DNA of 64,000 nucleotides from positions 236-64,235 of IMG/VR virus record IMGVR_UViG_3300042988_000456; one strand, 5' to 3'. Below, piece by piece: positions 1,583-58,615 of the stretch. Every line of letters starts with the position of its first letter. Position 1 is the first letter of the stretch. The notes under the pieces were generated by a model. That model was not told where the DNA came from. It did no database searches and saw only the letters and a list, made by a program, of their open reading frames with translations. Source of the stretch: a virus (lineage: Duplodnaviria; Caudoviricetes). Position numbers and translations under genes: made by a program.

Positions 1583-2176
1583 ATGAAACGATTCAATACC
1601 CGCGAAGAGTGGCTGCAGGCTGCAGTCACTGAGTTGCGACCCATCTGCGCAAGCATGGCGACAGATATCGCCCTGAACATCAGGGTCAGTTGCGGTTTTC
1701 CCAGCACGTTTAAACGCTCCGGCGCTATCGGAGAATGCTGGGCGGATACAGCATCCGCCGATAAGACGATGGAGATTTTGGTTAGCCCGACCCTCGCAGA
1801 CCCTGCTCAGGTTTTCGAAGTGCTGGTGCATGAGTTGTGCCACACAATGGCTGGGTGCATGAATCACGGCACCACTTTTGCCAAAAACGCTGGGGCCATG
1901 CTGCTGCTGCCGTCCGCATCGAAGGGCTGGAAAGCCACACAGGCAGGCCCTGACTTTGCCACGGTATTCGGCCCGTTGATCGAGTCGCTGGGCGACTATC
2001 CCCACGCCCAATTGTCAGTGTCAGGGAAAAAAACGCAGGCAACCAGAATGCTCAAGTGCTACTGCCCCGAATGCGGGTACACCGTGCGCCTTACCCACAA
2101 GTGGGCTGCAGTGGGTATGCCCATCTGCCCGACAGATCACATGCACATGATTCTCGAAACCAGCGAACAGGAGTGA
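1583..2176 (+). CDS. SprT-like zinc metalloprotease
   Basis: HELCH zincin motif, a downstream H (MNHG), C-terminal CPECG...CP zinc ribbon. Start placed at ATG 1583 after GAAAGG. Confidence 0.8.
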   Translation: MKRFNTREEWLQAAVTELRPICASMATDIALNIRVSCGFPSTFKRSGAIGECWADTASADKTMEILVSPTLADPAQVFEVLVHELCHTMAGCMNHGTTFAKNAGAMLLLPSASKGWKATQAGPDFATVFGPLIESLGDYPHAQLSVSGKKTQATRMLKCYCPECGYTVRLTHKWAAVGMPICPTDHMHMILETSEQE

Positions 2177-2181
2177 ACAAC

Positions 2182-3621
2182 ATGGCTATTTCGAATTCCC
2201 TTGCGGTAAACGCACTGCCCCTCGCCAATCTGATTCGGGCCTATCAGGCCCTGAGCGGTGCCACGGGCACCGTGACACGCGACCATGCAGTTGACTGGCT
2301 TGTCCGCCATATGGCTGCAACGGGCGCAACGCTGGCGCAAATCCAACGCGCTGGTGCTGGCGCCGTTACCGCTGCCACAAACGCCCCCGCAGCCGCGCAA
2401 CCTGTAACGGTGGATGCCGAGGGCATCCGAACCATGATCGACCAGACAACCGCTCTGGCATCTGCAAATGGCGCAAAGCTGACAACGCTGGAATCTACGC
2501 TTTCCAGTGCGCTGGACACCGTTGAGTCGCTGGGCGACACGGTCACCATGCTGGCTCAACGTTTAAACGCTGCCGAGGATCAGCGGATCGATGCCAGCAC
2601 GGTCAAGCCTGCGCTGGATCAAGCCATTGCTGATGCACTGGCACCTTTCATCACGACCGTCCGGCAAGCGGGCATGGAAGACCGCATTGCAAGTGCCATC
2701 ACACCCTACTGGGGGACTAGGGATGCGGGCGATTTGTTCGGTGTAGTGGCATGCGACCTAAAGGGTGATGAACTTGGGTTTCATGTTTATGCCTCGCCCG
2801 AGGCACCTGCCGTGGATGACTCATACATCTGGACGGCTGAGATGGTGAAGGTGATGGCATTGGCCCAGCACGGGCACAATGTGTGGCTGGGCGGCCCCAA
2901 AGGCACTGGCAAGACTCAGGCGGCAATGCAGTTTGCAGCATGCACGGGTCGCCCATTCACGCGAATCAACTTCCAGAAATACACCAGTGCCGACGATTTC
3001 ATTGGCTGCACTGGGTTGGAAAACGGGGCGACAGTCTGGAAGGATGGCGCATTCCTGCAAGCTTTTGAGCGTCAGGGTAGCGTGATCCTGCTGGATGAAA
3101 TCACAAACGCTGACCCTGCAAATCTGGCAATCCTCAATGGCCTGCTGGAACCTGCTGGACGGGTGATGATCGGCGGACGCATGCGTCAACGGGCTGCAGG
3201 TGTAGTGGTGATCGCTGCAGACAACACCCTTGCAACGGGTGATGACTCCGGCCTATACGCTGGCACTAAGACCATGAATGCCAGCCTGCCTGAGCGTTTC
3301 CCATTGATGATTGCATGCCAGCACCTTGATCCGCAGACTGAAATAGATGCGCTGGTGAAGCACACTGGCTGCAGGACTGAACTTGCCACTGCAGTGGTGA
3401 AAGCTATTGGCGCATGCCGTGCCAAGGTCGCGACAGGGGACATCGTGGATGCCCCGTCCATTCGGGCTGCAATGGCATACATCAGGGCCATTCCCATCAT
3501 GGGCAGTCGCATGGCATGGAATGCCACGATTGCATTCAAACAGCCTGCCGAGTCCGCCACTGCGCTGGAAGGCATCAGGATTGCCTACATCAATGACTCG
3601 ATGATTGAGTCCTACGTTTAA
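2182..3621 (+). CDS. MoxR/CbbQ/CobS-like AAA+ ATPase
   Basis: Walker A GPKGTGKT, Walker B ILLDE, AADNT sensor region, SLPERF arginine finger, C-terminal PSIR. Confidence 0.88.
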   Translation: MAISNSLAVNALPLANLIRAYQALSGATGTVTRDHAVDWLVRHMAATGATLAQIQRAGAGAVTAATNAPAAAQPVTVDAEGIRTMIDQTTALASANGAKLTTLESTLSSALDTVESLGDTVTMLAQRLNAAEDQRIDASTVKPALDQAIADALAPFITTVRQAGMEDRIASAITPYWGTRDAGDLFGVVACDLKGDELGFHVYASPEAPAVDDSYIWTAEMVKVMALAQHGHNVWLGGPKGTGKTQAAMQFAACTGRPFTRINFQKYTSADDFIGCTGLENGATVWKDGAFLQAFERQGSVILLDEITNADPANLAILNGLLEPAGRVMIGGRMRQRAAGVVVIAADNTLATGDDSGLYAGTKTMNASLPERFPLMIACQHLDPQTEIDALVKHTGCRTELATAVVKAIGACRAKVATGDIVDAPSIRAAMAYIRAIPIMGSRMAWNATIAFKQPAESATALEGIRIAYINDSMIESYV

Positions 3622-3638: not shown

Positions 3639-5243
3639 ATGAAAGCACGTTACAACGGTTTCGAATTCCGCAACGGGGTCACCGCTGCGATTCATAAAAT
3701 CTGCGCAGATCAGGGTATTGATTCTGTCCAGATTGTGTGGTCTGGTGATGTCTCGACTGCCTGCATCAATGCTGACGGGGCACTGTACCTGCCCAATCCA
3801 CGGGACGGCGCAGTCTTGACGCATGCCATGCTGGAACGCTTCGTGGGCTACGGGTTCCATGAGTTGCTACACCGCAAATACACCGACTTTGCCGTGAGTG
3901 GTGGGGACCAGTACTTAGACATGATCCACAATGCAGTGGAAGATGCATGGATCGAACGCAACGCTGTCAATGCCCGCCTGACCGGAAACGCTGACGCATT
4001 GCTCAAGACCCTGATTGACGGTCTGGTAGCCGAGGGCATGGAACATGTCACTGACTGGGCAGACCCTGCACAGTATCCCTTTAGCCTCGCAGTGTTCTGC
4101 CGCCCGTGGGCAACCCCCGTGCCAGTGCCTGCAACCCTGCTGCCTATCTGGCAAGCTGCCAATGCACTGATCCCCAACTGCCGCAATAGCTACGACACGC
4201 TAGAAGTCGCCAAGTATGTTTTTGACAACCTGCCCCGCACCTCTGCCAAAAACCGCCCCAATGGCAACCAAGCACCCAAGCTGCCGCAACCGCAGGCAGG
4301 TGATGCGGGCGACAAGCAACCTGCAGGGCAAGGCGCAGGTGATGCGCAGGGTGACCAGCAAGGGGATGAGTCCAACAAGACTGCGCCCAACGCTGGAAAG
4401 GCCCAGCAAGTGTCCAGCAAGACCATTGCCAACGATGCCGAACCGAATTGCAAGCTGCCTGCCGATCAGGCATCAGGCGGGACATATTCGGGCGCAGCCG
4501 ATCTCCGCCGCAAGGGCTTTCACCTGAGCCAACAGGTCTACCCTGTTCAAATGACTGCCAGTGCCAAATTGCGGGTCGAACTTAAACGCCTGCTGGATGC
4601 ATCCGCCCGTGAGGAATTCACGCATGGCCTGCGCACCGGACGTTTAAACGTTCAGAGTCTTCCAAAGCATAGTTACTCCGACACAATTTTCAGCAAGCGC
4701 ATGGAGCAGGACGGGATCGACACTGCCGTTGGCATCCTGATCGATGTCAGCAACTCTATGCTTGACGCCTGCGCAGGTGCTGATGGCAAGCCGGATTCAT
4801 CCACCCTACTGCGCGAAGCAGTGAACGCTGCAGCAACCCTTCTGGACTGCCTCCGCCGTGCGCAGGTGCCAACGCTGGTAGCGACTTTTGATGACTTCTA
4901 CAGTGTCGTAAAGGATTGGAATGAAAGCCCCATAGCGGGTGCTGCAAGCCTGAGCCGAGTGAAAGACGGTGGAAGCACTGAGGACTTTGCAAGCCTGCGA
5001 TGGATGCACGATCAACTGCAGGTGCGCAGCGAACAACGCAAGATTGTGTTCGTACTGACTGACGGTTGCGGGGACTTCCAGTCCACCTACGAACAGACCC
5101 TGTCGGGCGAGCGTCTGGGAATCACGACTATCGCTATCGGCCTGAACACTGATGTATCGCATGCATACAACAAGTCTGTGCGGGTCGCCAATGCCGCTCA
5201 ACTGGGCGAGGTATCGTTTAAACAAATCAAGCTTGCACTCTAA
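3639..5243 (+). CDS. CobT-like VWA-domain protein with N-terminal HExxH motif
   Basis: N-terminal HELLH and NAVEDAWIE, low-complexity linker, C-terminal MIDAS DVSNS...T...LTDG; adjacent to the AAA+ gene. Confidence 0.85.
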   Translation: MKARYNGFEFRNGVTAAIHKICADQGIDSVQIVWSGDVSTACINADGALYLPNPRDGAVLTHAMLERFVGYGFHELLHRKYTDFAVSGGDQYLDMIHNAVEDAWIERNAVNARLTGNADALLKTLIDGLVAEGMEHVTDWADPAQYPFSLAVFCRPWATPVPVPATLLPIWQAANALIPNCRNSYDTLEVAKYVFDNLPRTSAKNRPNGNQAPKLPQPQAGDAGDKQPAGQGAGDAQGDQQGDESNKTAPNAGKAQQVSSKTIANDAEPNCKLPADQASGGTYSGAADLRRKGFHLSQQVYPVQMTASAKLRVELKRLLDASAREEFTHGLRTGRLNVQSLPKHSYSDTIFSKRMEQDGIDTAVGILIDVSNSMLDACAGADGKPDSSTLLREAVNAAATLLDCLRRAQVPTLVATFDDFYSVVKDWNESPIAGAASLSRVKDGGSTEDFASLRWMHDQLQVRSEQRKIVFVLTDGCGDFQSTYEQTLSGERLGITTIAIGLNTDVSHAYNKSVRVANAAQLGEVSFKQIKLAL

Positions 5244-21903: not shown

Positions 21904-22187
21904 ACTACCGCAGCCGCAAGCTGTTAGATGCTGCACGGGATGCTCCGTGCATGCATTGTGGTTTAAACGACTCCACAACTGTTGCAGCCCACAGCAATCA
22001 GCAGCGTGACGGTAAAGGCATGGGCATCAAGGCCCATGACTACCGCATAGCGTTCCTCTGTCACACCTGCCACGCAGCCATTGACCAAGGCTCTGGCTCG
22101 CGTGAGGAGAAAAAGCAAATATGGGAAGAGGCCCACCGCAAGACGGTGGGCTGGTTGTTTGAGACTGGGAAGATCAGTCCGACCTAG
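21900..22187 (+). CDS. DUF1364/YbcO-like zinc-binding putative nuclease
   Basis: RSRKLLDAAR..PCMHC...AAHSN...GKGMGIKAHD...LCHTCH. Confidence 0.75.
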   Translation: MNYRSRKLLDAARDAPCMHCGLNDSTTVAAHSNQQRDGKGMGIKAHDYRIAFLCHTCHAAIDQGSGSREEKKQIWEEAHRKTVGWLFETGKISPT

Positions 22188-25100
22188 CCATCTTGGCAAC
22201 CGCCTTGATGTTGTTGGTCAGTTCATTCTGCTGCTTGGTAATCTCCAACAGCATGTCTCGCTTCTGCTCTCCGCTCATGTCACTGGCCCTGATCAGGGTG
22301 GCACGGTCACTCAAGCTCTTCATGGTCTGGTTTAAACTGGACATGTAGGAGCGGATGGCATACAGCTTCTGGTTCTTTTCCCAATACTGCCCAAGCTCTT
22401 CACCGCCTTGGCCCTTGAGCAGGTTGACAGTTCTCACCACCTCATCCACTTCATCCTTGAGTCTGTAATACGCAGAGATGGTTCCCCGGGCCTCTGGGTC
22501 TGCAAGGAAGCGTTTCAACACTGGGGTCTGCTCAAACCGTTTGTCTGGCTTGGGGATGTCCGAATACTCATTGATCATGGCATCGAACAGATCGGACACA
22601 TACATGCCCATTGTTCCTGTGTAGCCCTTGTATGCATGCTCCAGCTTAATGGGGGACATGCCCAACTCTTTACCCAGTTGCTGCGCCCACAGTGCAGTGT
22701 TTCCTGTGGCTTGGTACTCTGGAGCAATGTCCTTCATGGCGCCGCTGACAACCTCTCTGCCTGTAAACGCAGAGTAGTTCACCACATTCTCTGCGATTGG
22801 AAGTACCGCCTGCGGTACAGGGTTGATAGCCAAGGTGCCCATGACAGCACGGCGACCAGCCAGCATCAGATCATCGGCTGTGTCATTGCCAAAGGCGTAC
22901 CGGTAGATGCGCTCCGGCAGTGTTTTAAACAGCAGACCCACTTCAAACGGGATCGGTATCTTCACCGGGGTTTCCATGCCGGGGACATGCACAATCCAGT
23001 TGTTGTCGCGTGTCTCTTCTTCTTGACGCTCATAGTCATCGTCACCAGCCATTTGAGCGGCATACATGACGCTCAACGACATCAGCATCAGACCACGCAC
23101 CATGAATGACTTGCATATACGCTTCTCATACTCCGTTGCATCCTTGGCATAGAGCGGACGGATGCCGGAGCGGAAGAAGATGTCTAAGCCCTGCATACGG
23201 GCATTCAGGAAGGGGATAGCTGCTGTGGCAATCCGAACCAAGGCAGAACTACCCTTGCGTCCGAAGTTCATCACCTCCATTGAGCGGAAGATGGCTTCTG
23301 CCTCATTGCCGGTGCGCTTCAGGGTATCTTCGTACACAGCCATGCGGGTAGCGGCATCAGACGCTTCTGTGGCCTGCTCCAACTGATCCCACAGACCCCA
23401 TGCGTAGTCACCCTTGGTCTTCTGTCCACCTTTGCGGCGCAGTGCATCACCAAAGGCTTTGCCACTTTGCTCAATGCCCTTGGACATCTCATAGCCGCCA
23501 AACACACCGGCATTGCGCAGAGCCTCATATACCGGGGAGCGTTTAAACAGAGCCTTGCCGAAGTTGGACAGGGTCGAGGTTACCGGGGTGATGTTGGCCC
23601 CGGATGTGACATATGCAGAAACTGCATCACGCATCATGTTCGCCAGAATGAAGCCCGGGTCTTTGGTCACAACGTTGCGCAGGAAGTTGGACGGAGCAGA
23701 CAGCAGGCTCATAAACGGCAACTCTGGCATGTTTAAACTCTTCACAGAGTCAAGGAACATGGGATCATCAACGTAGTACGAAACCTTCTTCCCATTCTCC
23801 AGCACAGTCATGTGGTGTACACCGGCAGTGGGTGTGGGAAGACGATGTGCCATGCCAAGTTGCGTAGCTAGGTCTGCCGCCTTGAGGGCGGCTGTGTTCT
23901 TCATGCCCATGTTGATGGCAGACTGGGTGTTGCGCACCACAGTCTCCAGCATGTCTGCAAGGGCTGCGTCACCACCCTTGGCAGTCTTGATCCCCGGAAC
24001 TCCAGCAATGCTGTTGGAGATGCGCGGGCCAATGGTTTCATCTTCTTCCAACTGACGGTAGAAGGGGAAGTAGTCTGCATGTTCAACAAACGTTTTGGCT
24101 GCAGCAGCAGAGATGAGTCCAGTGTCCTGCATGTACTTGACCAGCCCGTTGTTGTAGGTCAGCCACTCGTTACGAATGTCTTTGAACTCGGGGAACTTCT
24201 GCAATATGTCGGCTGCATGCTTGATGTCATCCCGTGTAAACAGTTCTTCCTTGTACTTGCCGGTAGCAGGGTTGATGATGTACTTGGAACCCCGTTGTAC
24301 TGCAGCCCAGTATTGATAGGTGCGGTACACATCGGGGTCGTTGTACTTCGCCAGCGGCAGGAAGATGTCCAGCAAGCCCTTGGTGCTGGTGTCCACGGTG
24401 GTCATGCCATTGCGGTACACAGGGATGCCACCCTTGGAACCCAGACCCATTGCAGCCGCAGCAACGGCTGCAGAGTTGTCGGACATGAGTGCTGCAGACT
24501 CTGCATTGGAGTCAGCAAGACGTTCAATGCCACCGTTGAGCTTTGCCAGATGACGCTCGTACTCACCAAGAGTCTGGTAACGGTTTAAAGCCTTCTGCCG
24601 GAAATAGGAGAACGCCTTCGGGGATGTGGCATTGATGATCCGATCCATGAAGCCTTCTACCTGCCGGGGCGTTGTAGTGGCTTGGATACGGTTCCATGCA
24701 GCAGGATTGATGTTGCTCTTCAAGCTGTACTTCTTGCCAGTGTCTGGGGTCGATTCATCCTCCATCTTCTGGAGGCTTTCAGGCGACCAGATGCCAGCGT
24801 TGCGCTGACCTCCATCGTAGTAACGAACCTCAATCGGGATGGAGTCCCAGCCTTCTGCCGCTGCAGCCATGATGCGGTGGTTGCCTTCGCTTACCCAAGG
24901 CTGACCATCGTACCCAATCATTACAAACGGAGCGTATTCTTTGCCACTGTCTGTCAACGGCAATTTGCCGGTCTCGCGCATGATCTTACGGATGGCTGCA
25001 AGATCGTCTTTACGAACGCGCTGTTGCTCACCATTCTGCCCCGGAACGGTCTTGGCAATAGAAACCGGAACCATCACAGGTCGGTTGAATGACCCAGTGA

Positions 25101-28100
25101 CAGATTGCATCTTTGGAACACCAAACTGTGATCGCGGTGCTTTGGCGGCGTAATCCACCTTGCCTTGTAGCCAACGATCATTGGGGATGTCTTCGTAGAA
25201 CTTGGGCGCAGAGCGCAGACTTGCCTTGCCAGTCAATGCCTTGCTCAAAATCTCGGTCAGTTCCGCATCTTCAAAATGCGTTGCGTTTGGCAAATCAGAT
25301 TCACGGAATGAACGGAATCCCGTGACATCGGCAGACTCAAGGCGATTGAAGCGTTGAATGAACTTTCCCGGAGGCAGTGGGCCGTCTATGTCGTAGAACT
25401 TGCCATCTAAAGACACCACTGCATGATCCGCACTGCCATCACGGCGAGTCAGGGATACCAGATCGCCGCCAATGACATTTTTTAGCGACTTAGCAAAGGT
25501 AATGCACCCTCCATCTAGAGGCCCAGAGCCTGTCACATCAAGAATATGGCTGTACAGTTCGTTTTTAACAGGCGCAATCGCCTGCTTAAACTCAGATACG
25601 GTTGATGGCGCTGTACGCAAGCTGTACCGGATGTCTGGGTTCTTAGGATTAAACGCACCGGAGTTACCGGCGGCTGATTTGATTTGCTCTGGACGGAACA
25701 CTGCAAATGTCCCACTCCCAAGCTGCTTGACCGCATTGTCAAAATCCATATAGCCAGTGATGAAGTCGCCGTCCTCATAGTAATCAACACCACCATTCTC
25801 AGACGCAACCAGTTCGCCCTTTGACTTGCCAAGTTTGACACGACCATTCCTCTCAAACTCTGCTTTGCTTGGCGATACATAGGGATCATGTATAACTCCA
25901 TCAAACCCACGCCGCTCAAGTTCAAGACGGGTGGCAACTTGTAGCGTAGGAGCGCCAGTATCCCGCCAAGTGTCAGCAATCTCACGCGCAACTGATCTTG
26001 CCTGTGCGCGTGTAGCTGGGTTCTTTAGCGAGATGTAGAATGCGCGTGTCTGAGGGTTTGTCGCATTCGGCCTACCCCAAGGGTAACGACCAGAACTGTC
26101 TGCGTTTTCAAAATCTGAAGAAAACCAAAATCCGTTGTATGGGCCGTCAGGATCATTGGGGTTGACCTTATCCAAGTCAAAAACATGGAAGTCCCTCTCG
26201 GGACTGCCGTGATACACCACCAGCGGCTTACCATCAGCATCGACCACCTTGGAGTTGCCAAACCATCGTTTAAATTCTGGTGTATCCGGGGCGGTGCGCA
26301 GGCTGGCCTTGGCAATCGGAAATACTTTGCGTTTAAACTGCTCCTGATTCGGAACTGTGACAGTGTCGCCATCCGTCTTTGGGTTGTAGTTGACAAAGAA
26401 CCCGCCGGTCTTCTGCGTGGATGTCTTCTCACTCAGATTTCCAGCCTTGTTCTTCAGGCCAACAATCACACCCTTGCCACCTTGTTTGGCTTTCAGGAAT
26501 GACTTGTCATCAATGAACCGCGCATCGTAGTCATCGCCGTTCAGGACGGCGTATGTCACACCGGTCTCCTCGTCGTGGAGGAACTTGGGCATGGCAGACT
26601 TGCTGGAGAACGCCATAGCAACGTTCTGTCCATCATTTAAACGACGGCGCATGGTTGCCCAGTTGTGGTCGTAGTCGCCCTTCTTGTTCTTGAAGAACAC
26701 CTTCTCACCATTGACGATCTGACCGAAACCAGTTGAGCTATAGGTCAGGTGATGGTTGGGTGCAATCGACTCACTGCCAAGCTTGGTGTAGTCATAGAAC
26801 ATGGCATCGGGGTTGCCCTCAATGATGCCCCGCCACATTTCCGGCTTGAAGTCAGATGTGACATTTAAACGGAACGCAGGCTGGAAGATTTCCTTTGGCG
26901 CACGAACCATCTTGCCGTCAACCTTCTTGCGCTCAGTCTCTGCGGTAGCCCATTCGGAGAACAGTTCGATCTCATGCTGCAGGACAATGGCAAACTCTTC
27001 AGGGTGCATGATGAGAGCTTCGGTCTTGAGGTACTGCATCATCCGTGCAGCGGCACGGAATGCACTCTTCTCAATGTCACCCACATCCTCCATTGCAGCG
27101 CCACCAAACATGAAGTTGCCGCCGGATGTCTCTCCAAGGCACAACCCTTCACAGATGGCAGAACGGGCACAAGTGTTGCTCTTGTCGGTAATCTTCTGGG
27201 CAGAAGCCAGACCCAGCCCCATAGAGGCCACACCCTTGTCGATGTCCAACAAGTCGGTGTAGTCATTGGTGCGGGTCTTCTCCAGCTTGCCGTTCTCGGT
27301 CATCAACGTTGAAACGTTGTGTTCCGACTTCAGAAGGTTACGCGCCTTCTTGGCGAAGGCTGCGCGGTCTTTCTTGTTGGTGATGGCTTTGTACTGTGCC
27401 ACCGCCTTGGAGATGCGATCTTCGTGATCCTTGTAGTTGAATTCATCGGTGATGGCTTCGTGCCGCGACTTCTGAATCGACTGCAGATTCATCTTCTTGG
27501 CAAAGGCTTTGCCATGACCTGTGGGGATGTAGAAGTCCACACGACCATTGTCAAACTTCTGATCCATCTGCAGGAAGTCAGGATTGACGTTCAGCAGCAC
27601 CGTGCTGCCGTTGAACTCATGGTCAAAGTTGCCACGATTGCGCAGTGTCTCAGCACCATTGGACTCATTGGTCACATAGATACGATCCCGTCCCTCAGAC
27701 GGGATGACCTTGGTGCGGCTGATCTGCAGAGCCATCTCTTTGGTGGTGTGGAAGTACACCGTCATGGTGCCGTCCTTGTTTAAAGGTACACCGGAGAGAG
27801 GGTGAACACCGTATGGCTTCTTGGGATTGACTGTCTTGATGGAGTACCTGACAGGGAAGTCAATCGGGCCTGCAGATGTGTAAGGCAGGATGCCGTTCTC
27901 TTCTTCGTACTTCTCAGCCTTGACAAGCTCTGCAGGTGTGGCTTTCCACTGATTGCGTATTGATGGCTTGGTGCTTGAGGCGGTGGTGGTGTCCACCTGA
28001 ACAGGGCGCAAGTCACCTTGCTCAACCTTGGTGAAAATCTTGGAAGATGTGGTGAACTCTGCACCGCGCAGTGAGTTGCTCAATGCCTCAAAGAATTGCT

Positions 28101-31077
28101 TGATCTTGGCAAGCAAGTTGGCAAACATCCCTTTGGGAGCGCCATTGGCATCAAAATCACCAAAGGCATCAGCAATAGCCTCTTCCCTGATGGCTTCCAT
28201 GTCGTTGCCATAGCGACCCTTGTATGCATCAAAGCGAGAAACGCCTTTCTCCACATACTGCTGCTTCAGGTATTTGTCGATCCAGACGGTGTCTGCTTGA
28301 TGCTGCAACACTTTCCACTGTCCTGCAGTGAAGAATCCCAATTCCTTGAGGGCGTGAATGGTCTCATGCCGCAACACCCGGACTGGGTTGTCTGCGTTTA
28401 AAGCAACCTTGATCAGCTTGTTGGCGTACTCGCCTTCATCTTCCAGATTTCTGTCAACCTTTAGGTCAACTTCCCGGGCACCAAACTTGTCGAGGATTTT
28501 GCGCAGTTGCGCATGGAGAGCTTTTTCCTGTTCGGCAAGGTCAGAGTCCACCTTGGCCTTTTTGGAGGCTTCTACACCGGCAGAGGAGGGTGCCTTGGGC
28601 TTTGCAACACGAAACCCTATGGGCGCAATGAGTTGTTCATGCCTGCGTTGCAGGTCATCAATTTTGCTTTGGATGGCTTTCTTGTTGACTTCATTGGTGG
28701 TGATGGCCCGCTCATGCTCAGGGGTTCCAAATTTCCCCATCGCTTCCATTGCATCAATGCGACGGTCACCGGCTTCCATCCTGCGCTGCAGATCAGAGAT
28801 TTGCTGGGCAATGACCTTGGCTTGACCGTCCCTTATTTTCTTGAAGGTGGCAGCTTTGGCATCGGCAGCCTTTTGGCTAGTCGTTGCATGAAGCACCGTA
28901 TCACCCGATACCACTTCGATCTTGGGAAGTACATTGGGAGCGGCTGCTCCTTGCGGTGCTTGCGAAGCAGAGACAACATGGTTTACACCTTGTTCAATTT
29001 TCAAGTTCTGGGAGTTGGCAATCCGCTGTGCCAGTTCCGGGTCTTCCACAGTTGTGACACGCTCACCCTTGGGATTGACAAGGTGGTACACATCCTTGGG
29101 CTGGATGTCTATGGCACCTTCTTCCCGCGCCTTGCGCAGCAAGGCAAGCACATCCTCTTCACTACGAAGCATGGTGGCCTGCTTGGACATGGCAATGGCA
29201 TCCGGCAAGGTGACTTGCCTGCCAGTGGTTTCCTTCTTGATGCGTGTGATTGCATCGGTGTACTGCCGTTCAGAGAACTGAGTGGCGTTGGTGTGGCTTG
29301 GAAGTACCTGCTCCACTTCATGGGCAGGTGCTGCCTCCAGCACTTTAAACACCGCATGCAGTTGAGGCTGCGACATCTCTGTGATGTCGTGGGTTCCACC
29401 AATACGATGCAGCAACGACTCAAAGCCATCATTGGAGATGGCAATGTTCTTCTCTTTGGCCTTGGCAAAAATGTCTTCGGGCGTCAGCTTGGTGTCGCCT
29501 TTGTACCCCATTCTCTGCGTCAGGATGGAGTCCAGAGCGGCCTGTTCACCCTGTGGGTTTACACGGGTCATTGCCGCTTTGACATCCTCCACGGAATAGG
29601 ATTCCAGCGGGGGAAGGTTCCCGGTACGACGGTAGGTGTTGATCCACTTGGTGACTTCCGGGCCAAGCTCATCCGGTGTAAACCGTCCAACAGGATCGGT
29701 CAGGTAGTCACGAATCTCGGTGGTGCCATATGCAGGTTCTGCAACCGTCTCCTCAACGGATGGGAACTCCATCTCGCTGACACGATTGTGTTCACGGGCC
29801 AACTCTTCCAGAACCGTCTGGTGCTGTTGCAACTTCTCTTCAATGTCCTTATTGAAGAGTTTGTCAGCCTCAGTCGAGTCCTTGGTGACCTCACGCAGTT
29901 GAGACTGCAGTTCAAGCTTCTGCTCTTCTGCGGCCTGATAGTCCTTGATGACCTGTTCGGCGTATTCTGGTGTCTGTTTAAACGCTTCTTCCTGCGCGGC
30001 AGCAGCTTCTTCAGCAGCCTTGGCTGCAGCAGACTCCTGCTGACGCACCTCCTCTGCTTCACGCGCAACTTGGTCACGCGCAGAACTGCGGTCATTCAAT
30101 CTACCTGCAGCACCAATAGGGCCAAGCAGGGACACTTGGTATGCCGTCTCACCATATTCCTTCATGGCATCGGCATCGGTCAACGATAAACCAGCCTGTG
30201 CCCGCTCCAGCATCTGTTGAGCAACCTCAGTCGGAACTTCGGCAAGAATACCTGTGCCAGTGCCTTTCAACAAGGTTGCAGCAAGACGTTCCTCTGCCAG
30301 CTTGGCAACCTGAGCAGAATTCTGTCCAAGCAGTCGCTCAACCGGAATGCCGGTCAGCTTGCTGACAAATTTGCCTCCCAATGGGACAAAGGTGGCAATC
30401 GTGTCCAGACCGGCTGCAGGCACTGCAGCCAATGCAGCCTTGGACACATCCACGTTTACAGGTAGACCAGCTTCTTTTTGCTCCTGAGCCTGCCGCTGCT
30501 CCATGCCACCAAGCATTTGAACGTAGCTTGGTGCAAACGCACCTAGTGCGCCACCTGCAACACCACCAACCAACTTTCCAACCGGCCCTCCCAAGGTTCC
30601 AATAGTGGAACCCAGCTTTGCACCAGCCCAAGCACCAGACGCAGCAGCACCCATAGAGGGTGCGTTTTCTGCCAGCATATGTGGTGCTTGTGTTGCCACT
30701 TCCTTTGCTGCAGCTAGGACACCATCCTTGTTGTACGCATCGGATACACGATCAAGTCCAACTCGCGAAGGCAAACGCTCTTCAAGCTCTGCACCGCGCT
30801 GTAAACCTTCCTCTGCAGCAACATTGGCATCACCAAAGGCTGCTCCTGCAGCCGTCTTGGCACTGGACACCATTGACTCAATGCCACGGGATAAAGACCC
30901 CATGAGACCAGTTTCTTCTTTGGGCTTGGCTTGGACGGGGGCTGGTGGCCTTACTTCCTCATCCGGCACATACAACATCTGCAGCTTGCGAGCATACTGG
31001 GTCAGTTTAAACGCAGCATCCTCATCGCCAGCGGCTTCTGCACGTTTGGCGGCGTTCAAGACATCAGATATTTGCAT
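22174..31077 (-). CDS. Giant polyvalent internal virion (ejection) protein, 2967 aa
   Basis: Last gene of the virion module; contains HETIH zincin, ART-like, Cx5Cx3C Gp88-like, ART-PolyVal-like (PLVVYHGS...GFWFS), Cys-His-Asp, ParB/Srx-like (EGNHRI) and LPD38-like C-terminal segments. Confidence 0.85.
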   Translation of the reverse strand: MQISDVLNAAKRAEAAGDEDAAFKLTQYARKLQMLYVPDEEVRPPAPVQAKPKEETGLMGSLSRGIESMVSSAKTAAGAAFGDANVAAEEGLQRGAELEERLPSRVGLDRVSDAYNKDGVLAAAKEVATQAPHMLAENAPSMGAAASGAWAGAKLGSTIGTLGGPVGKLVGGVAGGALGAFAPSYVQMLGGMEQRQAQEQKEAGLPVNVDVSKAALAAVPAAGLDTIATFVPLGGKFVSKLTGIPVERLLGQNSAQVAKLAEERLAATLLKGTGTGILAEVPTEVAQQMLERAQAGLSLTDADAMKEYGETAYQVSLLGPIGAAGRLNDRSSARDQVAREAEEVRQQESAAAKAAEEAAAAQEEAFKQTPEYAEQVIKDYQAAEEQKLELQSQLREVTKDSTEADKLFNKDIEEKLQQHQTVLEELAREHNRVSEMEFPSVEETVAEPAYGTTEIRDYLTDPVGRFTPDELGPEVTKWINTYRRTGNLPPLESYSVEDVKAAMTRVNPQGEQAALDSILTQRMGYKGDTKLTPEDIFAKAKEKNIAISNDGFESLLHRIGGTHDITEMSQPQLHAVFKVLEAAPAHEVEQVLPSHTNATQFSERQYTDAITRIKKETTGRQVTLPDAIAMSKQATMLRSEEDVLALLRKAREEGAIDIQPKDVYHLVNPKGERVTTVEDPELAQRIANSQNLKIEQGVNHVVSASQAPQGAAAPNVLPKIEVVSGDTVLHATTSQKAADAKAATFKKIRDGQAKVIAQQISDLQRRMEAGDRRIDAMEAMGKFGTPEHERAITTNEVNKKAIQSKIDDLQRRHEQLIAPIGFRVAKPKAPSSAGVEASKKAKVDSDLAEQEKALHAQLRKILDKFGAREVDLKVDRNLEDEGEYANKLIKVALNADNPVRVLRHETIHALKELGFFTAGQWKVLQHQADTVWIDKYLKQQYVEKGVSRFDAYKGRYGNDMEAIREEAIADAFGDFDANGAPKGMFANLLAKIKQFFEALSNSLRGAEFTTSSKIFTKVEQGDLRPVQVDTTTASSTKPSIRNQWKATPAELVKAEKYEEENGILPYTSAGPIDFPVRYSIKTVNPKKPYGVHPLSGVPLNKDGTMTVYFHTTKEMALQISRTKVIPSEGRDRIYVTNESNGAETLRNRGNFDHEFNGSTVLLNVNPDFLQMDQKFDNGRVDFYIPTGHGKAFAKKMNLQSIQKSRHEAITDEFNYKDHEDRISKAVAQYKAITNKKDRAAFAKKARNLLKSEHNVSTLMTENGKLEKTRTNDYTDLLDIDKGVASMGLGLASAQKITDKSNTCARSAICEGLCLGETSGGNFMFGGAAMEDVGDIEKSAFRAAARMMQYLKTEALIMHPEEFAIVLQHEIELFSEWATAETERKKVDGKMVRAPKEIFQPAFRLNVTSDFKPEMWRGIIEGNPDAMFYDYTKLGSESIAPNHHLTYSSTGFGQIVNGEKVFFKNKKGDYDHNWATMRRRLNDGQNVAMAFSSKSAMPKFLHDEETGVTYAVLNGDDYDARFIDDKSFLKAKQGGKGVIVGLKNKAGNLSEKTSTQKTGGFFVNYNPKTDGDTVTVPNQEQFKRKVFPIAKASLRTAPDTPEFKRWFGNSKVVDADGKPLVVYHGSPERDFHVFDLDKVNPNDPDGPYNGFWFSSDFENADSSGRYPWGRPNATNPQTRAFYISLKNPATRAQARSVAREIADTWRDTGAPTLQVATRLELERRGFDGVIHDPYVSPSKAEFERNGRVKLGKSKGELVASENGGVDYYEDGDFITGYMDFDNAVKQLGSGTFAVFRPEQIKSAAGNSGAFNPKNPDIRYSLRTAPSTVSEFKQAIAPVKNELYSHILDVTGSGPLDGGCITFAKSLKNVIGGDLVSLTRRDGSADHAVVSLDGKFYDIDGPLPPGKFIQRFNRLESADVTGFRSFRESDLPNATHFEDAELTEILSKALTGKASLRSAPKFYEDIPNDRWLQGKVDYAAKAPRSQFGVPKMQSVTGSFNRPVMVPVSIAKTVPGQNGEQQRVRKDDLAAIRKIMRETGKLPLTDSGKEYAPFVMIGYDGQPWVSEGNHRIMAAAAEGWDSIPIEVRYYDGGQRNAGIWSPESLQKMEDESTPDTGKKYSLKSNINPAAWNRIQATTTPRQVEGFMDRIINATSPKAFSYFRQKALNRYQTLGEYERHLAKLNGGIERLADSNAESAALMSDNSAAVAAAAMGLGSKGGIPVYRNGMTTVDTSTKGLLDIFLPLAKYNDPDVYRTYQYWAAVQRGSKYIINPATGKYKEELFTRDDIKHAADILQKFPEFKDIRNEWLTYNNGLVKYMQDTGLISAAAAKTFVEHADYFPFYRQLEEDETIGPRISNSIAGVPGIKTAKGGDAALADMLETVVRNTQSAINMGMKNTAALKAADLATQLGMAHRLPTPTAGVHHMTVLENGKKVSYYVDDPMFLDSVKSLNMPELPFMSLLSAPSNFLRNVVTKDPGFILANMMRDAVSAYVTSGANITPVTSTLSNFGKALFKRSPVYEALRNAGVFGGYEMSKGIEQSGKAFGDALRRKGGQKTKGDYAWGLWDQLEQATEASDAATRMAVYEDTLKRTGNEAEAIFRSMEVMNFGRKGSSALVRIATAAIPFLNARMQGLDIFFRSGIRPLYAKDATEYEKRICKSFMVRGLMLMSLSVMYAAQMAGDDDYERQEEETRDNNWIVHVPGMETPVKIPIPFEVGLLFKTLPERIYRYAFGNDTADDLMLAGRRAVMGTLAINPVPQAVLPIAENVVNYSAFTGREVVSGAMKDIAPEYQATGNTALWAQQLGKELGMSPIKLEHAYKGYTGTMGMYVSDLFDAMINEYSDIPKPDKRFEQTPVLKRFLADPEARGTISAYYRLKDEVDEVVRTVNLLKGQGGEELGQYWEKNQKLYAIRSYMSSLNQTMKSLSDRATLIRASDMSGEQKRDMLLEITKQQNELTNNIKAVAKMARSD

Positions 31078-31086
31078 GCTGCTCTC

Positions 31087-32856
31087 TTATTGGAAGTATT
31101 GATCTGTGCCCGCTGGCACCTGCTTGAGAGCCTCATTGTATTGACTGCGGCGCACGTTTCGCAAAGATTCTGCAATCATCTGGTCGCGCAAGGCAAGCTT
31201 CTGTTCCGCAGGTACGGTGAAGTACTTGGGATCATTCTCCATCAATTCTTTCCATGCCTTGGTTGCGTCTGCAATGGTTTGCTTCTCAAGTGCAGCAATC
31301 GTTTTCTCGCCAGACAAAGCAGCGGCTGCATTGGCGTCATAGTAGCGGGCATGTGCGCCGTACAGCTTCTCTTCCATCTTCTGCTTGCGTTCTGCAGCAG
31401 CCCGTGCAGCAGCTTTGTCGCGACCAGACAAGACACTTTCACCAGCCTCAGACAGGGCATGCTGCCAGTGCGGTGATTTGCTGCCAAGTAAGCCAAGACC
31501 CAAGCGCAGCCAGTCATCCTGACTGAAACTGGAGCCAGACTCCTCTTTTGCCTTGGCTGCTTGTGCAGCCGCAGCAGCAGGCATGTTTAAACCTTTGCCG
31601 GGAGCCATGACACTTGGATCAACCCCTGCACCGCCAAATCCTGTACGGGACGATGGAGTTGCAGGCACGGGGTGGCGACTCAGCAAACTCTGCGTCTCTG
31701 CGTTGGCGGCATCAGGATTAACACCTCTTGCAGGCTCAGTGTTCTGTGATGCTGTGCCAAAGCGAAGAACGTTCTGCACCACATCATCCTTGGGCACACC
31801 CGATGACTGGGCTTGTTTGCGGCGCAGCATCTCCAACTGCAGACCAGTCAGACCGGATGCTTCTGCTGCGCGAGCATACGCAGGCGAATGGGGATTGGAG
31901 AGCAAATCAGGAAATGCTTTGACGATCTCATCGTCAATGGCACCTTGAGACTTGGGAGCGGCAGGTTGTGCGGCATTGGCGGATGCCATAGGCAGCATCT
32001 TTGTCATCAAACTGGCAATGCTCTTGCCATATGTCAATGTATCTGGGGCGTCTGGGTTCTTCTTGTCTTTGCGTGATTTTCCTTCTGCAGCAGCTTTCAT
32101 TGCGCCCGGGCCACCGTAGTAAAACGCTCCTCCAAGCACAGGGTCGCGGCCTGCTTGATTGAATCCTTTGACGGCATAACGCACACCAGCCCGTGCCATG
32201 TCGTACTTATTGGATGGATCAAGTGCGTTATCAACGTTTACATCTTTGAATGCAATCGGCGTTACTTGCATGTGTCCAACCGCACCACGGTTGGAGGTGG
32301 AGACGTTTTTGCCAGATGATGACTCTTGGTGGTAAATTGCTTTGATAAAAGCAATTTCCTCTGGGTCGGAGATTCCTTCTGCTTGGATGGCAACATCCAC
32401 GGGGTCGGATTGGCCTTCACCGGCATTGCCAAAGCGACCACCGCCATTGGCGAAGGCAACCATTCCACCACCAGCCATGCGAGGTTCATAGTTGTCCGTC
32501 AGTGGGCCACCGCCACCTGCGTAATTGAATTCATCGTACCCAACGATTCCGCCTTCAGCCATGTTCTGCATGTTCTGCACTGGCAGTTGCGCAATGCCAC
32601 TGTCTTCAGGCAATTGAGCCATGCTCTGCAACGCTTGATCCACAACCTTGGGTTGTTCCTGTTGATGCTGTTCAGCCGCAGCCCGCATTTGCTTGCGGCG
32701 ATTGCTTTCGGCAAACGCCAAAGACATGGTGTACGGATCATCCTTGTGCATGGCTGCATATTGCTGCAAAGACTGATCCGGCATCCTTGCCAGCATGGTG
32801 GACAAGCTGTTGGCGTCAGGAACCTTTTGTTGGGCTTGAATGGATGGGTACTGCAT
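31087..32856 (-). CDS. Internal virion protein with lytic transglycosylase (SLT) domain
   Basis: QESSSG...SNRGAVGHMQV...YYGGPG SLT motifs. Confidence 0.8.
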   Translation of the reverse strand: MQYPSIQAQQKVPDANSLSTMLARMPDQSLQQYAAMHKDDPYTMSLAFAESNRRKQMRAAAEQHQQEQPKVVDQALQSMAQLPEDSGIAQLPVQNMQNMAEGGIVGYDEFNYAGGGGPLTDNYEPRMAGGGMVAFANGGGRFGNAGEGQSDPVDVAIQAEGISDPEEIAFIKAIYHQESSSGKNVSTSNRGAVGHMQVTPIAFKDVNVDNALDPSNKYDMARAGVRYAVKGFNQAGRDPVLGGAFYYGGPGAMKAAAEGKSRKDKKNPDAPDTLTYGKSIASLMTKMLPMASANAAQPAAPKSQGAIDDEIVKAFPDLLSNPHSPAYARAAEASGLTGLQLEMLRRKQAQSSGVPKDDVVQNVLRFGTASQNTEPARGVNPDAANAETQSLLSRHPVPATPSSRTGFGGAGVDPSVMAPGKGLNMPAAAAAQAAKAKEESGSSFSQDDWLRLGLGLLGSKSPHWQHALSEAGESVLSGRDKAAARAAAERKQKMEEKLYGAHARYYDANAAAALSGEKTIAALEKQTIADATKAWKELMENDPKYFTVPAEQKLALRDQMIAESLRNVRRSQYNEALKQVPAGTDQYFQ

Positions 32857-44034: not shown

Positions 44035-44661
44035 TTACGATGTTGATGTATTTTGCCAGCCGGGGGTTTGAGCGTCAACGACAGCAACCCAGCCTGAACT
44101 GTCTGTATTATCGGTGGGAGTCCAGCCGGAAGCTTGTGTATTTGTCACTGGAGTCCATGTCTCATCTCCAGACGGAGCATTGTTATTCCACCCTGCCGTC
44201 TGCTCATCATCAATCAACTCCCACTGCCGTGGGTAGATGTTGGCATCACCGCCGACTATGCCGTAACTTCCAGCCAGTGCCTGAATGCTCCAAGAGCGTG
44301 ACAAAGATGCATCTTGCCCTGCAATCGTGTAAACGCCAGCAGCGGCTGACAAAACTTTGCCAACCAAAACACTGGCAGAACCTCCGGTGACGGAGTACGA
44401 CCCCGCAACTGCGGAAATCTGTTTGCTGCGTAGGAGAGTTGCTGTGCCGCCTGTGGTGGCGTAGGAGCCAGCATCTGCGGAGATGCGCTTGCTGCGTAAC
44501 AGGTTTGCTGCGCCACCTGTTGTAGCGTAAGAACCTGCTGCTGCCGACACAAACTTGCTGCGCAGGAGCGTAGCATCACCGCCCGTAACGCTGTACGAAC
44601 CTGCGTCGGCAGAGATGGCATATGCCCCACCGCCGCCTGTGAGCGCGAGCAGCAGGGACAT
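44035..44661 (-). CDS. Repeat-rich structural protein
   Basis: About five SAxAGSYxxTGGxAxLL repeats and WT-x repeats at the C-terminus. Confidence 0.6.
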   Translation of the reverse strand: MSLLLALTGGGGAYAISADAGSYSVTGGDATLLRSKFVSAAAGSYATTGGAANLLRSKRISADAGSYATTGGTATLLRSKQISAVAGSYSVTGGSASVLVGKVLSAAAGVYTIAGQDASLSRSWSIQALAGSYGIVGGDANIYPRQWELIDDEQTAGWNNNAPSGDETWTPVTNTQASGWTPTDNTDSSGWVAVVDAQTPGWQNTSTS

Positions 44662-46952: not shown

Positions 46953-47366
46953 CTAGTTCGATGAGCGCAGCACTGCGCTTGAAGATGTGTTCGCCGGAAA
47001 CGTGACCGTGAACGTAAGGACGGATGTTTTGTCTGCGCCGAAGTCCAGCACAGCAATCGACTTGTTGCCTTTGCTGGCGTTGTAGATCAGTGCATAACGG
47101 GCTGTGAGCGCAGCATTCCAAGAAACATCTGCAAAGTCGGCATACACCGTGAACCCATCCGTACCAATGGTCGGAGTCAGAAGCTGCTGACCTCCAGCGG
47201 AGTAGCCAGAAGCAACCACCTCATCTGTGGTTGAGTACACGGTGGTGTCCTGATCCAATGACGCATTACCTGTGTACAAGGCAATGTAAATGTCATCATT
47301 CAGCAAGTCGTGAACGGCTTGCCAACATTCGGATTTAAACGATGTAGTTTGCGTTTGAATGCTCAT
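46953..47366 (-). CDS. Small virion structural protein
   Basis: IALYT...EVVASGYSAGG...ARYALIYN...AVLDFGADKT. Confidence 0.65.
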   Translation of the reverse strand: MSIQTQTTSFKSECWQAVHDLLNDDIYIALYTGNASLDQDTTVYSTTDEVVASGYSAGGQQLLTPTIGTDGFTVYADFADVSWNAALTARYALIYNASKGNKSIAVLDFGADKTSVLTFTVTFPANTSSSAVLRSSN

Positions 47367-48016
47367 GTCACTGGCGTTTTCATTTGACCGGAGCGGTAGG
47401 TGTCTTCCTTCTCCATGCCGTCACCAAGACGCTTGGCAAGCATCAAAGCTTCCTTGAACTTCGTCTCATACAACTGCTGCATGTCAGACTCACCCTTCAT
47501 AAAGGTGTAGGCTTCCACCAAGCATCCATACAGCAATACGGGGTCAAAGTTATCACCAAGCCATGTGGTGCTTGCAGTGACAATCGATTCCGGCATGAAG
47601 AAGTAGTGCAACTCTGCCTGATAAGCCAACGACGGAGTCGGGCCAAGAATGTAGGTCAACTCACTCTCGTTGTCAGAGCGAGGGCCAAACAAGGCATAGT
47701 ACTTGGGCGCACCTGTGCTGGTCGGCGTTGGATACGCCTCCCGAATGTAGTTCACATCCTTGTTCAGCAGGTAGGTATAAGCACCAGTAGTCGGATGAAT
47801 GGTAGCTAGTGAGTATGTGGCAAGGAAGTCCAACGGGCACTGCAGATACTTGTTACCCACTGTCAGGGTTCCAGTGACGCTCTTGCGGAGCGCCGCAAAC
47901 TGCACGGCGTTGTATATGCGTTTCTCAGTCTGCTGTGTAAACGTTGCAAGCTGCTCCGCAGAGAACGTGTTCTCCGTGTAGTCGCTGATGGCAGTACACA
48001 ACTCCGTGTAATTCAT
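47363..48016 (-). CDS. Head-tail adaptor / tail tubular-like protein
   Basis: MNYTEL..AI.DY.E...GPTP...LLYGCLVEAYTFMKG. Confidence 0.7.
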   Translation of the reverse strand: MNYTELCTAISDYTENTFSAEQLATFTQQTEKRIYNAVQFAALRKSVTGTLTVGNKYLQCPLDFLATYSLATIHPTTGAYTYLLNKDVNYIREAYPTPTSTGAPKYYALFGPRSDNESELTYILGPTPSLAYQAELHYFFMPESIVTASTTWLGDNFDPVLLYGCLVEAYTFMKGESDMQQLYETKFKEALMLAKRLGDGMEKEDTYRSGQMKTPVT

Positions 48017-48368: not shown

Positions 48369-48758
48369 TTAAGTTACCGAGATTGTAACGGTGCCGACTT
48401 GCGTTGTCGCCACCAGATTGTTAGGCGTTAAGCTGACATCAAAGAACCGCGAACCACCCACAGGTGCCCAACCCCACTGGATGTCTCGACTACCCTCGCC
48501 CGGGTATCCACTCGCCAACAGACCAGACGCAATATAGCTGCGATCTGGTCGTGGGTTGCGTAGTGCTTGCGGATCAAAGACAGGGTACATGCCAAGCTGC
48601 AGTTGCGGATGATCCTGCTCCCAGCATTCAGGGCACACCAACATGTTGATGTTCTTTGTCTTGATGACCAGTGCCTTGAGTTGCTTGAGCTTGTACCGAA
48701 AGCCACAGCGGTCACACTCCGCTATGGCAATCTTGCCAACCGCAAAACTATTGCTCAT
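48369..48758 (-). CDS. Conserved zinc-finger protein
   Basis: CDRCG...VCPECW...HPQL...DPQALRNPRPD. Confidence 0.7.
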   Translation of the reverse strand: MSNSFAVGKIAIAECDRCGFRYKLKQLKALVIKTKNINMLVCPECWEQDHPQLQLGMYPVFDPQALRNPRPDRSYIASGLLASGYPGEGSRDIQWGWAPVGGSRFFDVSLTPNNLVATTQVGTVTISVT

Positions 48759-49444
48759 ACAAACATCTGCCTTGGAACAAACCGAACAGGAGCCTTCTCC
48801 CGGTCTTCGCCTGCGGCGAAATCCATCTGCTCATCGTACACAGCTTTGAGCATCTGCACACGATCCGAAAGCTCCGGCGTCTTTAGCGCAAGGTGGTAAG
48901 CCAAGCCAGCCACCAAGGCTGGCAGGAACCTGAATTGCACATCTGCAGTTTCCGCACCATCACCAGCATCCTGAATCCTGCGCAGTCTCCAATAGCGCAA
49001 GACATACATGTTGTCTTGATCCGGCACAGGCCACACCGTGACACGGGGTGCATCACGCAGACGCTGCACCCACAGTTGAATCGGGCGAGCCTGCGTCAAC
49101 TTGTTGGGGATGCTGGAGTACGTTGAAACACTGATGCGGGAGATGGTCAGGTCTGCCTGCGTTGCAGAGTTTCCGCTGCCTGTGCGGATGACATGATCCA
49201 GCAAATCAATGGTATCGGAGGGAAGGTCGTAGGTGGCAGTTCCCTGTACCAAATTGACACTTCCTTCTTCAATCGTCCACATGTTGATGCCACGGTTCTG
49301 CCACTCAATGGTCATCAAGTTCATTGATCGACGCGCAGTGCGAAGGTCGTAGCCAGTCCTCAACTCCTTGCCCGCACGTTCCCATGCCTCTTCGGCAATG
49401 TCGGTGAAGTCAAGATTGAAGGTGGTGGTGCCGGATGTGGTCAT
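48755..49444 (-). CDS. Head-completion / adaptor protein (P22 gp4-like position)
   Basis: ARRSMNLM..EWQNRG.N.W, WPVPD, RFLPALVAGLAY. Confidence 0.7.
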   Translation of the reverse strand: MTTSGTTTFNLDFTDIAEEAWERAGKELRTGYDLRTARRSMNLMTIEWQNRGINMWTIEEGSVNLVQGTATYDLPSDTIDLLDHVIRTGSGNSATQADLTISRISVSTYSSIPNKLTQARPIQLWVQRLRDAPRVTVWPVPDQDNMYVLRYWRLRRIQDAGDGAETADVQFRFLPALVAGLAYHLALKTPELSDRVQMLKAVYDEQMDFAAGEDREKAPVRFVPRQMFV

Positions 49445-58180: not shown

Positions 58181-58615
58181 TTAAGCGCGAGTTACACCAC
58201 GGGGGTCAACTACAACGGCGTCCACTTGGTCATCGTTGAGTAGACGCATTTCCTTGCCGTACATCTTGAATCGCGTTCCCGAGTAGGTTCGAACCAAGAT
58301 GAAGTCGCCCTGTTTACACCAAGGGCCGGAGGGAAATTTGTTGGCATCCTTGTATGCGTCCGGGCCAACAGCCAAGACAAACAGGACGGTGGTGCCATGT
58401 TCTTCAGCGCGAAGCTGAGACGTTGGCTTGACCAAATCCAGTGTTGTGCCATCGATGTTTTCGGAGACATCAGGAACAATGCACAAGATTTTGTACCCTT
58501 GCGGAATGGGAAGCTGAGTGGCTTTCTGCTCTGCAGGGATGTTCTCATCCTGCGTGGGTGCAGGCTGGATAGGTTTGGGCATGCTCACGCCCGGGGGTAG
58601 GATCAGATCAATCAT
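58181..58615 (-). CDS. GroES-like co-chaperonin
   Basis: PQGYKIL...VLAVGPDAY...WCKQGDFIL..YSG...RLLNDD.V.AVV. Confidence 0.8.
   Translation of the reverse strand: MIDLILPPGVSMPKPIQPAPTQDENIPAEQKATQLPIPQGYKILCIVPDVSENIDGTTLDLVKPTSQLRAEEHGTTVLFVLAVGPDAYKDANKFPSGPWCKQGDFILVRTYSGTRFKMYGKEMRLLNDDQVDAVVVDPRGVTRA

Follow-up and report, generated by a model that had tools for sequence, protein, structure and literature searches.

Are the short peptides that recur along a giant phage protein joints between exchangeable parts, and is the chain cut at them? This question is raised by a protein of 2967 amino acids (aa; P0001), encoded by the open reading frame (ORF) 22174..31077 on the minus strand of a 64,000-nucleotide stretch of the IMG/VR virus record IMGVR_UViG_3300042988_000456 (Duplodnaviria; Caudoviricetes); we refer to this whole stretch as the window. 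Analysis of the protein and its relatives indicated that the junctions marked by these peptides are very probably real cassette boundaries, maintained by selection.

Junction peptides of the giant protein

A first-pass annotation, made from the sequence of the window, had listed six related linkers, and all of them were found in frame in the giant ORF: KPSIR (linker 1; aa 1037-1041, 27955-27969), RYSIK (linker 2; aa 1077-1081, 27835-27849), KASLRTAP (linker 3; aa 1590-1597, 26287-26310), RYSLRTAP (linker 4; aa 1817-1824, 25606-25629), KASLRSAP (linker 5; aa 1951-1958, 25204-25227) and KYSLK (linker 6; aa 2116-2120, 24718-24732), these and all parts of the protein described below being encoded on the minus strand. 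The pattern [KR][YAP]S[LI][RK] occurs in 6 copies in the giant protein against 0.065 expected (20000 residue shuffles; maximum 2; none reached 6), and the eight-residue form [KR][YA]SL[RK][TS]AP in 3 copies against none in 20000 shuffles, but these numbers overstate the significance because the pattern was defined post hoc; the comparative data on relatives stand independently of them. A widened pattern, applied to all reading frames of at least 150 aa in the window, gave 7 matches, 6 of them inside the giant ORF. The Ser, Leu and Arg codons differ among the six linker copies, and therefore conservation acts on the peptide rather than on the DNA. DNA-level recombination sites at the linkers within the giant gene were rejected on the same ground. 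Two further approaches to the motif were set aside: a sequence logo of 340 motif contexts was circular, the contexts having been picked by the pattern, and was not used as evidence, and de novo motif discovery by exact 4-mer recurrence was too noisy.

Judged by its domain content, the giant protein is a phage-type polyvalent protein sensu Iyer et al. 2017 (PMC5512222), since a single ORF combines GP88 (aa 1262-1453, E 3.7e-13), ART-PolyVal (PF18760, an ADP-ribosyltransferase (ART) domain; aa 1613-1809, 2.3e-21, 77.5 bits against a cut-off of 31.2, profile positions 1-140 of 140), a YunG-like match (aa 1855-1905, 28.6 bits against a cut-off of 27), a weak ddrB-ParB match (PF18763; aa 1985-2071, E 0.0057, 17.2 bits against a cut-off of 27.6) and LPD38 (PF18857; aa 2679-2854, E 9.8e-36 to 7.4e-38, 124 bits against a cut-off of 27), a domain restricted to phage-type polyvalent proteins. 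This identity had been proposed at first pass, and both the Pfam domain set and the place of the gene at the end of the virion operon support it.

In the layout of the chain, an N-terminal region ending in a domain with an HExxH motif is followed by four enzyme cassettes and by a conserved C-terminal module that bears LPD38 (aa 2121-2967, 22177..24717). The N-terminal region (aa 1-856, 28510..31077) comprises a Gly/Ala-rich hydrophobic stretch, a coiled coil and a further unassigned part, with a weak Gly-zipper match at aa 148-181. Cassette A (aa 1082-1589, 26311..27834) contains an ART-like fold and a GP88/radical-SAM-like barrel, cassette B (aa 1598-1816, 25630..26286) is the ART-PolyVal ADP-ribosyltransferase, cassette C (aa 1825-1950, 25228..25605) is YunG-like and cassette D (aa 1959-2115, 24733..25203) is ParB-like; ParB-like modules in two other giant proteins (P0122 and P0123), 63-64% identical to cassette D, carry precomputed PF18763. 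In model-based comparisons with modest scores, the ART-like fold of cassette A (about aa 1083-1189) matched several ADP-ribosyltransferase-type toxins at Z 4.2-6.9, the best matches being Agrobacterium 6b (Z 6.9) and TreTu (Z 5.0), and the barrel (about aa 1220-1574) gave Z 4.3-5.6, with pyruvate formate-lyase-activating enzyme and spore photoproduct lyase at Z 5.6. The GP88 cassette was found in 119/119 relatives, and the Cys triad of the barrel, C-x5-C-x3-C (C1303, C1309 and C1313; 27139-27171), is invariant in relatives, the canonical form being CxxxCxxC.

All six linkers fall between Pfam domains of the giant protein. In an AlphaFold2 model of aa 861-1600 (27-row alignment, mean predicted local distance difference test (pLDDT) 73), pLDDT fell below 50 at aa 1021-1045, 1060-1088 and 1586-1600, which contain linkers 1, 2 and 3, respectively; the pLDDT evidence covers these three linkers, and linkers 4-6 were placed by homology boundaries. 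The two folds of cassette A are joined without a motif, so some fold boundaries are motif-free. Five of the linkers correspond to conserved junctions in relatives, but the earlier claim of six related linkers at domain boundaries did not extend to KPSIR, which matches the pattern and is unconserved: at this place the columns of 53 aligned relatives read xPSxxNAW; it is probably a chance or decayed copy. Most of 54 aligned sequences fit [KR][YF]S[LI][KQ] at linker 2, and in the same alignment the columns of linker 3 read x-x-S-L-[RKN]-x-[AP]-P. Behind the conserved C-terminal tail of the ART domain, the motif of linker 4 stood at exactly +11 in 178 of 259 distinct tails, a fixed distance that inheritance with the ART domain suffices to explain. 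For linker 6, ahead of the C-terminal module, an LNRY anchor was present in 83 of the 120 relatives (37 lacked it), and 65 of these 83 have a motif that precedes the anchor by 40-59 aa. Conserved linker columns retain S-L-[RK] while the flanking residues vary, and the short junction peptides, probably disordered, have the general core [KR]-[YFLA]-S-[LI]-[RK], often followed by x-A-P. Beside these peptides, a 35-aa stretch between the HExxH domain and linker 2 (aa 1042-1076, 27850..27954) is strongly conserved, as NAWKAT...ENGIxPYVSEGxLDLP, with low AlphaFold2 confidence.

Exchange of cassettes at the junctions

A search with aa 860-2200 returned 1089 proteins, and the best 120 of these, all metagenomic, were used for comparison. 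The general motif in these 120 relatives was [KR][YFLMA]S[LIV][KR], and K/R-Y-S-L-K/R occurred 130 times against 0.8 expected, an excess inflated by shared descent. When the 120 proteins were cut at the motif, 513 segments of at least 30 aa were obtained, which fell into 59 families linked by at least 70% reciprocal coverage; these modules match end to end, and the proteins show 69 different architectures. The ART family had 15 different neighbours on its left and 11 on its right. In family numbers the architecture of the query reads 2-11-3-0-21-22-1, and no other of the 120 proteins carries its YunG-like or ParB-like cassette.

Insertions and deletions were analyzed with pairwise BLAST chains in the query and 39 random relatives longer than 2400 aa. 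These 40 proteins yielded 176 distinct insertions that measured 80 aa or more, of which 33 preceded the first motif, 6 followed the last and 137 fell in the cassette region. Of these 137, 73 had a strict motif within 20 aa of both ends, 33 had one that close to a single end and 31 to neither end, the chance level being 11.4% of random positions, whereas none of the 39 insertions outside this region ended at a motif. Many of the failing cases involve variant motifs (KYSLP, KASIT) or inserts within the ART domain, and the N-terminal region (aa 1-856) likewise shows large indels among relatives without motif ends. Relatives were thus shown to insert, delete, duplicate and reorder cassettes at the junction peptides, and the proposal that the linkers serve as in-frame swap points, with modules gained or lost there in orthologs, was borne out by large indels ending at motifs far above chance and by the number of architectures. 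Cassette C also has a free-standing homologue, a 138-aa Mesorhizobium protein (P0160) with 43% identity, whose residue 4 aligns with aa 1828 and whose start maps just past RYSLRTAP; the alignment supports the view that cassette C is the equivalent of a whole free-standing protein.

The same cassette occurs between other junction peptides in other lineages. A search with aa 1817-2120 revealed the ParB-like cassette in 39 other giant proteins at 31-69% identity, and the homology started at query aa 1939-1960, at linker 5, in 38 of the 39 and ended at query aa 2099-2114, at linker 6, in 36. At least one strict motif of the query type (class 1) was present in just 2 of these 39 proteins, and none had two or more. 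The ParB-like cassette is flanked on both sides by [KRA]PAA[MST]R[EGQ] repeats in 7 proteins and by DINAM/DINMM or DIR[KR]S-type repeats in further ones, and the PAAMR, DINAM and DIR[KR]S repeats likewise stand behind the ART or GNAT cassettes of these proteins. Anchors for both the ART tail and the ParB tail were present in 17 proteins, of which 8 could be classified at both; the junction class agreed in 6 of these 8 and the other 2 combined DIRYQ with PAAMR, in what is a comparison of small samples of related proteins. These alignments show that the junction sequence follows the lineage of the carrier protein and not the cassette. Among metagenomic LPD38/LPD39 proteins (P0121-P0159), junction repeats of their own, also including LEDRGAGEV and DIRYQR, were seen around ParB-like, ART and GNAT cassettes.

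Proposed cleavage, the HExxH domain and alternative readings

The mechanism that we propose is that the junction peptides would be the recognition and cleavage sites of a lineage-specific endopeptidase, for which the embedded HExxH domain would be the best candidate. If each of the five conserved sites were cut between Ser and Leu, about six products would result, of 117.1, 57.4, 25.3, 14.4, 18.4 and 94.2 kDa, and the enzymes would be released in the capsid or after ejection. On the comparative evidence, the chance that the junction peptides are cleavage sites appears to be slightly below even, and that the embedded HExxH domain does the cutting is a tentative proposal which we regard as doubtful. 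Three of the four motif classes share the order of a small, a hydrophobic and a usually basic residue (S-L-R, A-M-R, A-M-Q). This order would fit a metallopeptidase with a preference for a hydrophobic residue behind the cut bond, as thermolysin-like enzymes have.

The HExxH domain (about aa 857-1020, 28018..28509), a candidate zincin-like peptidase, was delimited by conservation and has pLDDT 85-98. Within its HETIH motif (aa 904-908, 28354-28368), H904, E905 and H908 are invariant in 116/116 aligned sequences and lie on a helix in AlphaFold2 models, and the same 116-sequence alignment has an invariant E965-E966 pair in a later helix, EEAIADAF (28162-28185), a candidate position for the third metal ligand. 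An HExxH motif with a downstream Glu helix is the zincin signature described in the text of Iyer et al. (PMC5512222). The reading of HETIH as a zincin, made at first pass, is thus favored by the invariant motif and the downstream Glu-Glu pair, but profile and fold comparisons did not bear it out. Searches with two window segments and nine short relatives found no Pfam family for the domain, with a lone Peptidase_M4 hit at E 0.11; PDB sequences gave only matches at E of about 0.7-0.8; the best VIA-align match of the domain model (Z 6.7) was a helicase helical domain, with no peptidase among the 50 matches listed; and Foldseek gave no match at E <= 0.001 for the domain model, nor for the 740-aa model of aa 861-1600. 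The domain model compared (aa 870-1036) is almost all helical; its first residue is aa 870, whereas conservation extends back to about aa 857, and hence the first elements of the domain, perhaps including the expected sheet, are probably missing from the fold comparison. The language-model neighbours of the domain contained LPD23 in 13-20% of members (score 0.92-0.95), and a MuF_C cluster scored 0.84. Complex prediction of HExxH aa 878-1025 with zinc and the peptide aa 1798-1840 scored 0.00 twice, with no controls, and speaks neither for nor against binding.

A full-library search with the HExxH domain returned 1179 proteins, and 114 new representatives of at least 1600 aa were scored: 69 had at least two strict motifs, 17 had one and 28 had none. 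Most of the 28 carry near variants (DIRKSLR, KKSLR, DIRYSL[AQP]). Six LPD38 proteins of cultured phages had no motif, five of them being without any HExxH and one having other HExxH types, and no cultured relative with the class-1 motif was found among 50,697 phage records, in which the only HExxH-domain match was Ruegeria phage 45A6. The 45A6 protein (L007 3457-15195) contains a helicase, a methyltransferase, GNAT and HESIH at aa 2856, its HExxH domain adjoining the C-terminal module. Another protein, P0163 (4460 aa), matched the query HExxH domain in four stretches, with HExxH at aa 950, 1618, 3129 and 3827 and no strict class-1 motif.

Several of these results weigh against cutting at the junctions or against the HExxH domain as the cutting enzyme. 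They include the failure of Pfam, PDB-sequence, VIA-align and Foldseek comparisons of the domain to return a convincing peptidase, the 28 representatives with the domain and no strict motif, and the 45A6 protein (3912 aa), which has LPD38 and a 28% identical HExxH domain and no motif; P0146 and P0149 similarly carry related HExxH domains (27-28% identical) without it. The association of lineage and motif may reflect shared descent, and the relatedness of the sequences inflates all counts. Types of HExxH do differ by lineage, an anthrax-lethal-factor/M90-like type going with DINAM, but among PAAMR proteins a TILHELLH type was found in 3/8 and no HExxH in 5/8. In addition, some known proteins of comparable kind are delivered uncut and another is cut by a separate enzyme, as considered next.

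The alternative that survives best, although we still hold it to be rather unlikely, is that the motifs are uncut spacers, fusion joints kept by recombination at or near them between related phages within one working chain; each would be no more than a short extended, basic, Pro-flanked peptide tolerated as a hinge between cassettes that fold independently, and might also help the unfolded chain to pass through the tail channel. The coincidence of swap points with motifs and the low pLDDT at the modelled linkers fit this reading, as does the fixed place of the post-ART motif in the ART tail, with which it can be inherited. According to the text of Iyer et al. (PMC5512222), moreover, some polyvalent proteins that carry such a peptidase domain (N4 virion RNA polymerase, ArdC and TraC1) are delivered whole, which also counts against cleavage. 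However, no particular sequence would be required of a hinge, and S-L-[RK] nevertheless persists at non-orthologous junctions behind four unrelated cassettes, with differing codons and variable flanks; around the same cassette, other lineages have a motif that is just as sharp but different.

It is improbable, in our estimate, that the motifs are cut by another protease, either an unrecognised phage prohead or maturation protease or a host protease, with the HExxH domain in a different role, such as that of an effector acting on host proteins or the cell wall. The prohead protease Pro cuts P1 DarA (PMC12810830), a precedent that tells against self-processing; the PAAMR-type proteins without HExxH and the related HExxH domains without the motif point the same way, and several ORFs between the portal and capsid genes are without an assigned function. 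However, no protease family was recognised in the ORFs scanned in the window outside the candidate HExxH domain of the giant ORF, and the motif is in no other long ORF of the window and is absent from capsid and portal, the usual targets of maturation proteases. Least probable of all is that the motifs are repeated docking peptides that bind the inside of the capsid wall, the portal, DNA or a chaperone and so order packing or exit; they are basic, repeated and surface-exposed, and the phi24B preprint raises the question of how an ejection protein of this size is laid out within the capsid (bioRxiv 10.64898/2026.04.10.717836), but docking fails to explain the strict placement at cassette boundaries, never within the long N- and C-terminal parts, and no partner was identified.

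Probable packaging, genome setting and relation to known systems

The C-terminal module is common to giant proteins of 64 phage records (tblastn), several of which are annotated as podoviruses. In Pelagibacter phage HTVC034P the homologue belongs to a block of internal virion protein genes, where it follows the genes for tail tubular A and B and one that resembles internal virion protein B. Two other giants ending in LPD38 were detected in purified virions by mass spectrometry according to the respective reports, namely phi24B gp47 (bioRxiv 10.64898/2026.04.10.717836) and JC1 gp69 (PMC9144972). From homology and gene position, we infer that the giant protein would be packaged in the virion and ejected.

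The source record is a 64,235-base virus that CheckV grades as complete, and the window (positions 236 to 64,235) covers nearly all of it. The giant ORF closes a virion operon that runs on a single strand from the large terminase (61366-62859), portal (58805-61357) and major capsid protein (55202-56131) through adaptor and tail genes to a protein with a lytic transglycosylase (SLT) domain. The latter, the upstream neighbour of the giant ORF (589 aa, 31087..32856, minus strand; Pfam SLT 2.4e-5), is likely to be a further ejected protein. A megablast of the giant gene against phage records gave a single 53-base match. Other genes of the window include, on the minus strand, an ORF of 152 aa, situated between portal and capsid (58181-58639), whose own C-terminal half is GroES/Cpn10-like (Pfam 21.3 bits against a cut-off of 21.1; PHROG co-chaperonin GroES 1.4e-6), two paralogous SU10-type adaptors (47363-48016 and 48755-49444; 9.5e-24 and 8e-12), a pairing that resembles podoviruses with two adaptor rings, and a 208-aa ORF in the tail-fibre block (44035-44661) with a weak endonuclease/exonuclease/phosphatase match (24.2 bits against a cut-off of 24.5). 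On the plus strand, a MoxR-type AAA+ ATPase (AAA_5, 3.6e-20; 2056-3621) adjoins a VWA-domain protein (3639-5243), a pair known from cellular MoxR-VWA systems and found here in the non-structural half of a phage genome.

The giant protein resembles the polyvalent proteins of Iyer et al. in its many effector domains per chain, its ART-PolyVal, ParB-like and LPD38 domains, its embedded HExxH and its virion-gene neighbourhood, but its HExxH domain matches no Pfam peptidase model. The text of that article (PMC5512222) proposed that an embedded metallopeptidase processes polyvalent proteins into functional units and drew the analogy to RNA-virus polyproteins; outside its supplementary files it contains no repeated junction peptide or cleavage consensus, linkers and boundaries going unmentioned and the word 'junction' referring to Holliday junctions only. 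A limited literature search found no description of junction motifs in polyvalent proteins. The polyprotein idea is thus already published, and junction peptides that are repeated and specific to a lineage appear to be new within this known class.

RNA-virus polyproteins have protease-specific cleavage consensus sites at the boundaries of their units. The giant protein shares with them unlike units in one chain, a short boundary consensus and its variation among lineages, but the type of candidate peptidase differs, the chain consists of accessory enzymes that can be exchanged, not of a fixed set for replication, and cleavage is a proposal here. That polyvalent proteins in general are polyproteins, each lineage with a co-evolving protease/site pair as in RNA viruses, is a speculative extension that we consider unlikely to hold; the sites would be [KR]xSL[RK] here and PAAMR, DINAM or DIR[KR]S elsewhere. 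Polymorphic toxins have demarcation motifs, VENN in CdiA and DPxGL in Rhs, and there, too, a short conserved peptide marks a module swap point on a conserved carrier; however, each has one variable tip, whereas here up to seven junctions with another motif stand in series.

C-terminal modules that bear LPD38 also occur in two giant podovirus virion proteins, phi24B gp47, proposed by its authors to be an ejection protein (bioRxiv 10.64898/2026.04.10.717836), and gp69 of Burkholderia phage JC1 (Bcep22 gp75-like; PMC9144972), but their cassette sets differ from those of the giant protein, and the accessible parts of neither paper report fragments or junction motifs. P1 DarA and DdrB are internal head proteins that are ejected with the DNA, proteolytically processed and have a counter-restriction role, although the P1 Dar proteins are products of separate genes, unlike the single chain here, and the enzyme that cuts DarA is the prohead protease (PMC12810830).

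Phages and plasmids are believed to inject polyvalent proteins as their first wave of counter-defence, and the 2017 proposal that an embedded peptidase cuts them came without defined sites. If the junction peptides are cleaved, they would give exact cut sites, product sizes and point mutants that block release, and the mature set of injected effectors would become readable from sequence, the junctions being the legal in-frame slots for cassettes. They would also provide a rule with which thousands of giant metagenomic proteins may be parsed into cassettes; and if the chain is left uncut, the motifs still define an assembly grammar of exchangeable parts.

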